A DNA stretch of 64,000 bases from Gammaproteobacteria bacterium (lineage in GTDB: Bacteria > Pseudomonadota > Gammaproteobacteria > UBA6002), in assembly GCA_013697705.1 (NCBI GenBank), contig JACCWJ010000008.1, forward strand, positions 6,235 through 70,234. Direction: 5' to 3'. This document shows positions 15,256 through 16,701 of this stretch, one piece after another. The position numbers were made by a program, and so were the translations under genes. Every line of letters begins with the position of its first letter. Position 1 is the stretch's first letter. Below the pieces are notes generated by a model. It worked only from the letters and a program-made list of their open reading frames with translations, made no database searches and was not told where the DNA came from.

Positions 15256-15510
15256 CTAGTTAATGGGTTGTCCGCCTTTCTTCATGCATTGTTCTGAACT
15301 CATATAAATCCAGCCCTTTCCTTTACAGGAGTTTTGGCCGGCGCAGGAATTTTTATTCTTTTCCCCGCATTGCGCTTTTCCTCGACAGCTATTAACGCCA
15401 TAACATTTTACTGGCTTAGCTGCGCCTGACACTTTTTCAGCTGCAAAAGAGTGAGAGGTAAGTAATAAGCTCGCTGCTGTAGCTAACAAGATTCCTTTCG
15501 TTAAACGCAT
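15256..15510 (-). CDS. small secreted Cys-rich protein, DUF2282/bufferin-precursor-like
   Basis: Signal peptide (LLATAASLLLTSHSFAA); mature part KCYGVNSCRGKAQCGEKNKNSCAGQNSCKGKGWIY...EQC with 6 Cys. This matches from memory the KCYGV...CAG...G.W pattern of DUF2282. Confidence 0.6.
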   Translation of the reverse strand: MRLTKGILLATAASLLLTSHSFAAEKVSGAAKPVKCYGVNSCRGKAQCGEKNKNSCAGQNSCKGKGWIYMSSEQCMKKGGQPIN

Positions 15511-15552
15511 TCTGATCTCCTTTTAAAATCCACCTTATTAGTTTAGCCCATT

Positions 15553-16701
15553 CTAAATGAGAAACTGTGAAGTTTCGTCTTTGTGTTTTTTCAGATATTC
15601 CATGAAAGGTGTACCGCCTGTACCGATGCCAGTCGGATTAGCAAGGGAGGTTTGACTCTGCTTCTGTATATAGTGCGCTGCAAAATTTAAATGTGTTTGG
15701 CGAAAACGTGCGAGCAAGTTAATACCCGCATTATAATTTTCGCGTAAATTTATATCATCCTTATGGCTCGTCAAGATGTATTCACGTATGGAAACGTTTT
15801 GTTCTATTGTGCCAATAAAATCACGATGCGCTACGGGCATATACTCGCGCATTTCCGCCAAATATAAACGAAGTGGATCAGGACGATGCTCAATTCCAAA
15901 GAGTGCATCGAACGAAGGAATGATTGAACTTTGAGCTCCTGTTTCACCTCTAAATTGTTGAGGTTGATTATCAAAAACTTCAACTCCCTCATAAATCACC
16001 CCGAGTGGTAAGGCAGGATTATCTTTCCAACCATGAATGTATGGTCGCACCCGATTGTAATAAATATAGGGGTCACAATGCTCTGTCATGCGATCTAAGG
16101 TGTCACACATTTTTTCCAAGTGTTGAATGATTTCTCCCAGATATTGCGCTACCAATGTTTCATTTTGCTGGTTGATAGCTTCTTGCAGTGGCAAAAAAAG
16201 TTGTAATGCTTGTGATGCTTTCATTTCAATATCTATATGCACTAATACAAACCACTCCTCATCTATTCCTCCTAAAAAATTTTGACTAAGAACAATATTT
16301 CCCAGTTCAATAGGACGATTAACATCAAGGCGTCGCCAGTTATTCAAAGCATACGAGTCATAAGAGAGAACGGGCGGTCGTCCTAATTTTTGAGAAACCT
16401 CAAACCAGGGAATGGCAATTGAAGCCGGGATTTTATCGGGACATTTTTTTTCGCCCCATATATAAGCATGTCCAAAAAAGGAAAGCAGCATCATTGCCCG
16501 CGAAAGTTCCGGTGCAGATTGTAGTCTCGCAACTGACAAGATAGGCATATTTTCAAAAGTCGTTTTTAGATGGTCGGACAAAAGTAACTTTGGCAACTCT
16601 TTTCCCAGTTCATCCCACCCCTGATAGTCACGAGGCAAGTCTGGAATGGGGTCATCGACAGGTAAAAAGCCACGCTCTAAATTTATGACGTGATTTTGCA
16701 T
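15553..16701 (-). CDS. indoleamine 2,3-dioxygenase (IDO)-family heme dioxygenase
   Basis: C-terminal GTGGTPFMEYLK matches the IDO hallmark GTGG(S/T). ARFRQTHLNFAAHYIQ aligns with the proximal-His region. N-terminal GFLP...LP..Y..W resembles IDO1. Confidence 0.8.
   Translation of the reverse strand: MQNHVINLERGFLPVDDPIPDLPRDYQGWDELGKELPKLLLSDHLKTTFENMPILSVARLQSAPELSRAMMLLSFFGHAYIWGEKKCPDKIPASIAIPWFEVSQKLGRPPVLSYDSYALNNWRRLDVNRPIELGNIVLSQNFLGGIDEEWFVLVHIDIEMKASQALQLFLPLQEAINQQNETLVAQYLGEIIQHLEKMCDTLDRMTEHCDPYIYYNRVRPYIHGWKDNPALPLGVIYEGVEVFDNQPQQFRGETGAQSSIIPSFDALFGIEHRPDPLRLYLAEMREYMPVAHRDFIGTIEQNVSIREYILTSHKDDINLRENYNAGINLLARFRQTHLNFAAHYIQKQSQTSLANPTGIGTGGTPFMEYLKKHKDETSQFLI

Follow-up and report, generated by a model that had tools for sequence, protein, structure and literature searches.

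The window, a 64-kb stretch of DNA, carries two neighboring open reading frames, 42 nt apart, at the coordinates given in an earlier sequence-only reading; both lie on the minus strand. The upstream frame encodes a haem dioxygenase of the indoleamine-2,3-dioxygenase (IDO) family and the downstream frame a small secreted peptide rich in cysteine. Each of the two is a new member of a family that is already known. The GC content of both genes (0.40-0.42) is the same as that of their neighbors. Table 1 lists the genes and the elements that surround them.

Table 1. Genes, spacers and repeat elements of the IDO-bufA2 locus (window coordinates).
Feature	Position	Strand	Basis or remark
IDO-family haem dioxygenase gene, 382 aa	16701..15553	minus	Pfam PF01231 and PDB IDO1/IDO2 matches
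IDO-bufA2 spacer, 42 nt	15511..15552	minus	sequence read
Stand-alone bufA2 gene, 84-aa precursor	15510..15256	minus	NCBIfam NF050166 match
GC-rich hairpin UUCUCCCC-UCCC-GGGGAGAA	15228..15247	minus	9 nt past bufA2 stop codon
Long inverted repeat, 47-nt arms, 28-nt loop	15071..15192		repeat search; between convergent bufA2 and wrbA-like genes
Divergent intergenic region, IDO (minus) / ankyrin-repeat gene (plus)	16702..17010		presumed IDO promoter region

The enzyme is an IDO. Its sequence matched Pfam PF01231 along profile positions 5-411 of 412 (E=2.7e-105, 353 bits, cutoff 26), and alignment to PDB sequences recovered the human IDO1 and IDO2 structures at E values of ~1e-59 to 1e-63. In the IDO1 and IDO2 alignments, His337 falls on the proximal haem ligand H346 of IDO1 ('rsyHlqiv' versus 'rqtHlnfa') and the C-terminal GTGGT pairs with the GTGGT of IDO1, upholding both of the signatures by which the enzyme had originally been recognized. 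In addition, Arg231 of IDO1 is retained ('nrvRpy') and 'GETGAQSS' is the counterpart of the GGSAGQSS stretch (GxxAxQSS). These elements and a full-length IDO fold signature are shared with other bacterial IDOs and with human IDO1 and IDO2. The window enzyme differs from human IDO1 in its distal pocket, where His155 takes the position of Ser167, a substitution that is also present in the engineered variant S167H (6cxu) and that recalls TDO with its distal His. It also carries Tyr/Tyr in place of Phe226/227 and has a shorter JK-loop region. Among the GTDB representatives scanned, none harbored an IDO with 100% identity.

The substrate is most likely L-tryptophan or a related indole, into which O2 would be inserted to yield N-formylkynurenine. 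Since the protein has no signal peptide, the reaction presumably takes place in the cytoplasm. Tryptophan catabolism in an intracellular bacterium, one of two readings originally offered for the locus, is a plausible interpretation of the gene. Bacterial IDOs have been known since 2011 (Yuasa, Ushigoe and Ball, as cited in PMC4191572), and members of the same clade, at ~50% identity, are widespread among free-living bacteria (Acidobacteriota, Nitrospira, Myxococcota and Nostoc), so that the enzyme is not specific to intracellular life. No kynurenine-pathway or copper-homeostasis context was detected in the window or around IDO genes in other phyla. Recent horizontal acquisition of the gene from a eukaryote was rejected in view of the broad bacterial distribution of the clade and a native-like GC content.

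The surroundings of the gene also bring to mind an enzyme that acts inside the host. An IDO translocated as a Dot/Icm-type effector could deplete host tryptophan or produce kynurenines in an amoebal or animal cell, with the bufferin gene as an unrelated neighbor. Eukaryote-like genes typical of Legionellales effectors do occur nearby (ankyrin-repeat and LRR-Ras/Roc genes, and F-box genes in relatives), and animal IDO1 and IDO2 are the closest solved structures. We regard this possibility as very unlikely, however, because the occurrence of the clade in free-living bacteria indicates an ordinary bacterial enzyme and because the gene shares the GC content of core genes. Furthermore, in another Coxiellaceae genome the IDO gene is preceded by an acyl-CoA dehydrogenase gene and followed, 25 nt downstream, by an amino-acid permease gene, an arrangement that suggests the bacterium's own catabolism.

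The second gene encodes a bufferin precursor. A Sec-type signal peptide can be read directly from the sequence at residues 1-23 (MRLTKGILLATAASLLLTSHSFA/AEK, the slash marking the cleavage site), with a basic n-region, a hydrophobic core of 14 residues and an SFA/A cleavage site. The mature peptide comprises 61 aa and six cysteines (Cys36, 42, 48, 56, 62 and 75). Identification of the product as a generic lipoprotein was rejected, given that the signal peptide lacks a lipobox Cys. The peptide matched the NCBIfam model NF050166 ('BufA2 family periplasmic bufferin-type metallophore') with 77.5 bits against a cutoff of 60, and seven relatives also scored above the cutoff (64.6-82.5 bits). In contrast, Pfam PF10048.14 (DUF2282) returned no match to the window peptide even at E<=10. 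A PF10048.16 match is present in a precomputed table, and the relative P0004 reached 19.8 bits with PF10048, under the cutoff of 22.4. The six cysteines, the NF050166 match and the lack of a PF10048.14 match together place the peptide in Buf2, the BUF_6/12Cys sister family, and not in DUF2282 proper. The original description of a DUF2282-type bufferin was thus right about the bufferin-type precursor and wrong about the family.

Comparison with homologues strengthens this assignment. Across 29 homologues, C36, C42, C56, C62 and C75 were invariant and C48 was present in at least 90%, and in the window peptide's own clade (57-74% identity) all six cysteines are retained. Two distant homologues of ~40-50% identity (P0010 and P0032, from L012 and L010) are encoded directly upstream of PF05114 (MNIO) and PF09836 (DUF2063) genes, a context which indicates that membership in the bufferin family is genuine. 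An AF2 model of the peptide, of moderate confidence (pLDDT 65), assigns Cys36 to the first strand and Cys75 to a short C-terminal helix, the positions described for BufA in PMC11626156. No PDB sequence was matched by the profile of the peptide family. Buf2 of Caulobacter vibrioides (BufA2 / BUF_6/12Cys, CCNA_03001; NF050166; PMC11626156) shares with the window peptide a Sec signal peptide, a core of ~61 residues and six conserved cysteines of which CysI and CysVI are placed for a disulfide. The two differ in genomic context, since the window peptide has neither an adjacent bufB (MNIO) nor an adjacent bufC (DUF2063) within the 64 kb and no sigma or anti-sigma regulator near it. Buf1 (DUF2282, PF10048) has a related small, secreted, Cys-rich fold with similar CYGV and C.G motifs, but it contains four cysteines instead of six and its biosynthetic clusters often include DoxX and SigF/NrsF.

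The short spacer bears on how the two genes are expressed. A Shine-Dalgarno sequence (AAGGAG) lies 7 nt before the bufA2 ATG. The 42 nt contain no hairpin, their RNA fold is no different from that of shuffled sequences (z=-0.4), and a terminator scan found no terminator-like site in them. Promoter and terminator scans gave weak consensus matches only, not significantly above shuffles, and the promoter-like matches at 16867-16838 on the minus strand, in the IDO upstream region, are likewise consensus matches only. Because the gap is short and lacks a hairpin, IDO and bufA2 may share a transcript, and the sequence is compatible with, but goes no further than allowing, their co-transcription. In L007 the corresponding spacer contains a stem followed by UUUUCUU, a terminator-like arrangement.

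Downstream of bufA2 there are two further structured elements. The GC-rich hairpin is stable (-14 kcal/mol, z=-2.9), has no U-tract and occurs once in the window; it is possibly the end of the transcript or a stabilizer of it. The long inverted repeat has a strongly structured RNA fold (z=-11.2) and is single-copy in the window. In relatives the gap between bufA2 and wrbA is at most 50 nt, and the inverted repeat is a lineage-specific insertion that may act as a bidirectional terminator or represent a MITE-like remnant.

The taxonomic distribution of the pair is informative about its history. The order ankyrin-repeat gene, IDO, bufA and wrbA is found in the window and in three other lineages (L003, L007 and L051), and the pair is kept in four of the six peptide-bearing lineages with gaps of 42-122 nt. 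The same slot holds the ankyrin-repeat gene, bufA and wrbA in L006, with no remnant of an IDO, and the ankyrin-repeat gene, IDO and wrbA in L014 (Coxiellaceae UBA6002), where bufA is absent and the IDO-wrbA gap is 22 nt. Stand-alone peptides occur at unrelated loci in L052, at 69% identity, and in L008. Outside the group, none of the 37 IDO loci of other phyla, including Acidobacteriota, Nitrospira and Nostoc, had a BufA-like ORF within 10 kb, or up to the end of the contig where that was nearer, and the neighbors of IDO in these loci were not conserved. A megablast search of the locus against PLSDB plasmids gave no match. Since the adjacency is confined to one Coxiellaceae-like clade in which the whole syntenic block is common, it traces back to a single ancestral arrangement. 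The pair is neither independently recurring nor obligatory in the clade.

These patterns weigh on the idea that IDO and BufA2 form a functional module. The two genes would then make up an operon, and the secreted Cys-rich peptide would serve either the haem enzyme or the compounds it makes, for instance by handling metal or haem or by acting as a redox partner. The shared strand, the short hairpin-free gap and the Shine-Dalgarno sequence of bufA2 itself are what an operon would show, and the adjacency persists in four divergent lineages whose IDOs are only ~64% identical. We nevertheless consider such a module highly improbable. L006 and L014 each have only one of the two genes in the slot, no peptide accompanies the IDO genes of the other phyla, the L007 spacer carries a terminator-like hairpin, and an enzyme without a signal peptide and an exported peptide belong to different compartments. 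Moreover, all cases derive from one ancestral synteny and so amount to only one independent association event. The second of the original readings, a new pairing into which the peptide had been drawn, finds no support in the distribution of the two genes, in the L007 hairpin or in the location of the L052 peptide at an unrelated locus. The adjacency looks like lineage history and not like a new functional pairing.

The peptide also stands apart from the genes that mature other bufferins. The sequence-only reading had reported no MNIO, DUF2063 or DoxX gene beside it, and this local orphan status extends across the whole 64-kb window. A phmmer search of all window ORFs of at least 40 aa found no MNIO or DUF2063 match, and a Pfam scan of window ORFs of at least 90 aa found no DoxX, MNIO or DUF2063. 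Note that the pre-annotated genes of L001 span ~5.3-25.5 kb of the window, and that annotation of a 2160-aa ORF relied on the 3057 nt of it that L001 contains. The same holds for the six lineages of the peptide clade, in which no MNIO, DUF2063 or DoxX gene occurs within 6-10 kb, or less where the contig ends. A BufB profile gave 7972 matches in a set of 5.8 billion proteins, and none of the 120 listed was assigned to the source genome. Orphan status is not new, since stand-alone bufferin precursor genes have been published, are common and count as members of the family in published surveys (PMC12452194). In Legionella pneumophila, which is likewise one of the Legionellales and has a similar intracellular and amoeba-associated lifestyle, bufferin precursors are likewise encoded away from MNIO genes (PMC12452194). 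The L. pneumophila genome, however, has several MNIO/DUF2063 pairs elsewhere, whereas Coxiella burnetii RSA493, of the Coxiellaceae, has no MNIO and no DUF2063 gene (Table S4 of PMC12452194). Given that C. burnetii is of the same family, modification of the window peptide in trans is an assumption.

The C. burnetii gene content opens the way to a bufferin that is independent of MNIO, in which the genome would lack MNIO and DUF2063 and the six-Cys peptide would work unmodified as a periplasmic thiolate/disulfide protein, either by binding soft metals such as Cu(I) or by buffering redox stress. The uniform stand-alone setting of the peptide in its clade, and the good conservation of sequence and of all six cysteines there, agree with this proposal. 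Still, we find it unlikely. None of the 864 complete genomes with Buf2 precursors in a published survey lacked an MNIO gene (PMC12452194), and thiooxazoles were needed for copper binding by Buf1 (PMC11626156). In addition, the motifs at the central cysteines (CAGQNSCKGKGW) are conserved as in homologues encoded within biosynthetic clusters, in line with a maturase that still recognizes them. The proposal bears on the peptide alone and leaves room for the independence of the two genes.

Taken together, we think it probable that IDO and a stand-alone bufA2 are two independent accessory genes, arranged head-to-tail, and that the slot they occupy in this Coxiellaceae-like (Legionellales) genome is a variable one. 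The slot is flanked by the ankyrin-repeat gene on one side and by the conserved backbone wrbA-(arsC)-brkB-ykuD-proS on the other. The bufA2 product would be exported by the Sec pathway, cleaved after Ala23 and folded into a small periplasmic domain closed by a disulfide between CysI and CysVI (residues 36 and 75). As proposed for the unlinked precursors in L. pneumophila, the four central cysteines (Cys 42, 48, 56 and 62) would most likely be converted in trans into 5-thiooxazoles, by BufB (MNIO) and BufC (DUF2063) encoded as a pair at another locus of the genome. Were there no such pair, plain thiolates of the peptide would be the metal ligands. We infer from Caulobacter Buf2 that the peptide may buffer excess periplasmic copper, a role that could be relevant in amoebal or macrophage phagosomes. 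Any common transcript of IDO and bufA2 would result from their chance order and would not be the sign of a functional module, although, with the pair retained in four of six lineages, there may be a selective reason for holding the two genes together.

The main gain is one of annotation. A 'hypothetical protein' of an uncultured Coxiellaceae-like bacterium becomes a Buf2 bufferin precursor, and its neighbor becomes a bacterial IDO in which His stands in for Ser167. Bacteria in phagosomes are attacked with copper and bufferins help under copper stress, so that bufferins in amoeba-associated Legionellales relatives make biological sense. There is, in our estimate, a rather small chance that a Coxiellaceae-like intracellular clade keeps a conserved six-Cys peptide of the Buf2 family in genomes that, like that of C. 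burnetii, have neither MNIO nor DUF2063. If so, they would be the first known case of Buf2 in genomes that lack an MNIO gene, in departure from the published survey (PMC12452194), and the bufferin fold would have a thiooxazole-independent function, separated from its defining chemistry. In that case, the persistence of its gene next to that of a haem dioxygenase might point to a common stress regulon.

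On the minus strand, an indoleamine-2,3-dioxygenase (IDO) gene is followed, 42 nt on, by an open reading frame for an 84-aa protein with a signal peptide (bufA2), an arrangement for which the coordinates of the sequence-only reading were confirmed. The locus has the same GC content as the core genes around it. The inverted repeat downstream of bufA2 (arms 85% complementary; RNA fold z=-11.2) occurs once within the window and, since relatives have at most 50 nt at its position, is a lineage-specific insertion, possibly a bidirectional terminator or the remnant of a MITE-like element. 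Next to IDO come several genes in succession that are large or eukaryote-like (17011-28936), as is typical of an effector-rich region in Legionellales-like bacteria; at the equivalent place, relatives encode F-box proteins, pentapeptide proteins and a Ser/Thr kinase.

Features of the IDO-bufA2 locus and the adjoining region of the window
Feature	Position	Strand	Remark
wrbA-like FMN-reductase gene	14466..15056		convergent to bufA2
Inverted repeat	15071-15192		47-nt arms, 28-nt loop; between convergent bufA2 and wrbA-like genes
GC-rich hairpin UUCUCCCC-UCCC-GGGGAGAA	15228-15247	minus	begins 9 nt past bufA2 stop codon
bufA2 gene	15510..15256	minus	ORF, 84 aa
IDO-bufA2 spacer	15511-15552	minus	42 nt; AAGGAG 7 nt ahead of bufA2 ATG
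IDO gene	16701..15553	minus	ORF, 382 aa
Ankyrin-repeat protein	17011-19173	plus	720 aa
LRR plus Ras/Roc GTPase protein	19313-20851	minus	512 aa
Protein with no Pfam match	20991-22061	minus	356 aa
DEAD/ResIII/SWI2_SNF2 protein	22454-28936	plus	2160 aa

The 382-aa protein matched nearly the entire Pfam IDO profile (PF01231; E=2.7e-105, 353 bits), and structures of human IDO1 and IDO2 matched it at E about 1e-59 to 1e-63. Alignments with these enzymes matched His337 to IDO1 His346, the proximal haem ligand, and revealed that Arg231 of IDO1 is retained, that GETGAQSS corresponds to GGSAGQSS of IDO1, and that the C-terminal GTGGT is the conserved IDO loop motif. The initial IDO call, which had noted GTGGT and a proximal-His region, is upheld. 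Unlike human IDO1, the window enzyme has His155 (codon 16237-16239, minus strand) in place of Ser167, which would give it a TDO-like distal pocket. Coxiellaceae homologues (loci L014 and L016) also have His at this position, as does the top-scoring IDO1 entry, 6cxu (the S167H variant), whose rank among IDO1 entries is consistent with His155. The enzyme, which has no signal peptide, is presumably cytoplasmic and would act on tryptophan or a related indole.

A survey of one genome per GTDB species recovered 37 related loci. The closest IDO belonged to 'Coxiellaceae bacterium UBA6002' (64%), followed by an uncultured Coxiellaceae (53%) and, at about 50%, by many Acidobacteriota, Nitrospira, Myxococcota, Verrucomicrobiia and Nostoc/Tolypothrix. 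This distribution places the window IDO in an ordinary, widespread bacterial clade; as cited in PMC4191572, bacterial IDOs have been on record since Yuasa et al. 2011. No conserved IDO neighbours were found in other phyla among the surveyed loci. In an uncultured Coxiellaceae genome (locus L016, 6220-12689), an amino-acid permease (Pfam AA_permease_2, plus a weak Trp_Tyr_perm match) lies 25 nt past IDO, and saccharopine-dehydrogenase-like, aldehyde-dehydrogenase-like and acyl-CoA-dehydrogenase-like ORFs, assigned from translations only, lie upstream, a context that suggests amino-acid catabolism.

Direct reading of the bufA2 product predicts a Sec-type signal peptide (MRLTKGILLATAASLLLTSHSFA/AEK), followed by a 61-residue core with six Cys; the signal peptide has no lipobox, which rules out a generic lipoprotein. 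At 77.5 bits (cutoff 60) the peptide clears NF050166, an NCBIfam equivalog titled 'BufA2 family periplasmic bufferin-type metallophore', and seven relatives clear it too. The DUF2282 model PF10048.14 gave no match even at E<=10; the precomputed PF10048.16 ('BufA1') table does include the peptide. Because NF050166 was passed and PF10048.14 was unmatched, we assign the peptide to Buf2 (BUF_6/12Cys), which is sister to the DUF2282 family, so that the earlier 'DUF2282-type' label was right about a bufferin precursor but not about the family. Residues C36, C42, C56, C62 and C75 are invariant in 29 aligned homologues, of which at least 90% also have C48. P0010, from a member of Limnocylindria, and P0032, from a Halobacteriovorax-like genome, are homologues encoded directly upstream of PF05114 (MNIO) and PF09836 (DUF2063) genes, a canonical buf2 cluster that anchors the family assignment. 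Caulobacter Buf2 has a disulfide between CysI and CysVI and a -4 Da modification on each of four central Cys, identified as thiooxazoles in Buf1 (PMC11626156). AF2 modelling of the window peptide (pLDDT 65) locates Cys36 on the first strand and Cys75 within a short C-terminal helix, in agreement with the published BufA topology. By analogy, the exported peptide would most likely buffer periplasmic copper.

Are the two genes a new pairing, as had been proposed? In L003 and L007 the slot reads Ank, IDO, BufA, WrbA, ArsC, BrkB, YkuD, ProRS; L051 follows the same order up to YkuD, where its contig ends, and the window has it without ArsC. L006, with the closest peptide (74% identical), has Ank, BufA and WrbA and no IDO remnant; L014 (Coxiellaceae UBA6002) has Ank, IDO and WrbA, with an IDO-wrbA gap of only 22 nt and no peptide; and the 69% identical peptide of L052 sits in an unrelated locus. 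No BufA-like ORF occurred within 10 kb of IDO (or to the nearer contig end) in any of the 37 GTDB-representative loci. Slot comparison and survey together trace every co-occurrence to a single ancestral arrangement rather than to recruitment, and IDO and bufA have since been lost, or are absent, independently of each other. An ArsC/Spx-family gene stands between wrbA and brkB in all five relatives (L003, L006, L007, L014, L051); the window has just a 156-nt gap there (14310-14465).

The IDO-bufA spacer measures 42, 66, 78 or 122 nt across the clade. That of L007 (7879-8000) holds a GC hairpin and, after it, a terminator-like stem followed by UUUUCUU; its GC-rich palindrome, CCCCUCCCUUCUCC-GGGG-AGAAGGAGGGG, resembles the sequence of the hairpin after bufA2 in the window, perhaps because the clade carries a short palindromic repeat element. 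Nothing interrupts the 42 nt of the window, so read-through from the IDO promoter into bufA2 is plausible; weak promoter-like matches do occur within the IDO 3' end. As the enzyme has no signal peptide and the peptide is exported, the two would act in different compartments. A functional IDO-bufferin module is unlikely, and the locus is two separate genes, each of an already known kind.

Bufferin partners were sought by phmmer with two BufB (MNIO) and two BufC (DUF2063) queries against all ORFs of at least 40 aa in the window and every fetched locus, and only the two true clusters matched. Pfam recovered no DoxX, copper or kynurenine-pathway genes among window ORFs of at least 90 aa, which include Tol-Pal, Ruv, tRNA synthetases, eukaryote-like proteins, an integrase fragment and the dcw cluster. 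The partners first reported missing are therefore indeed missing from the window, and bufA2 is an orphan locally. In the dcw cluster (52805-55503), ftsW (54337-55503) is followed after 98 nt by murC (52805-54238) without the murG that usually separates them. At 36749-38000, a phage-integrase-family ORF that is truncated (147 aa, aligning with the C-terminal portion of the profile only) precedes a HicB-like antitoxin ORF; they are probably what remains of a mobile element.

The five closest peptide lineages with readable context (L003, L006, L007, L051, L052; 57-74% identity) are all stand-alone, as is P0017 in L008. Stand-alone precursors make up a 'sizeable proportion' of Buf1 and Buf2 genes, and Legionella pneumophila has several MNIO genes with precursors located away from them (PMC12452194). 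By analogy, maturation of the window peptide would probably occur in trans, through an MNIO/DUF2063 pair located elsewhere in the genome. Published evidence on the maturase points both ways: among the complete genomes that encode Buf2 precursors, 864 in all, none was without an MNIO gene, whereas Coxiella burnetii has zero bufferin, MNIO or DUF2063 genes (Table S4, PMC12452194). If the clade truly had no MNIO gene, this would be the first case of a Buf2-bearing lineage that lacks the maturase.
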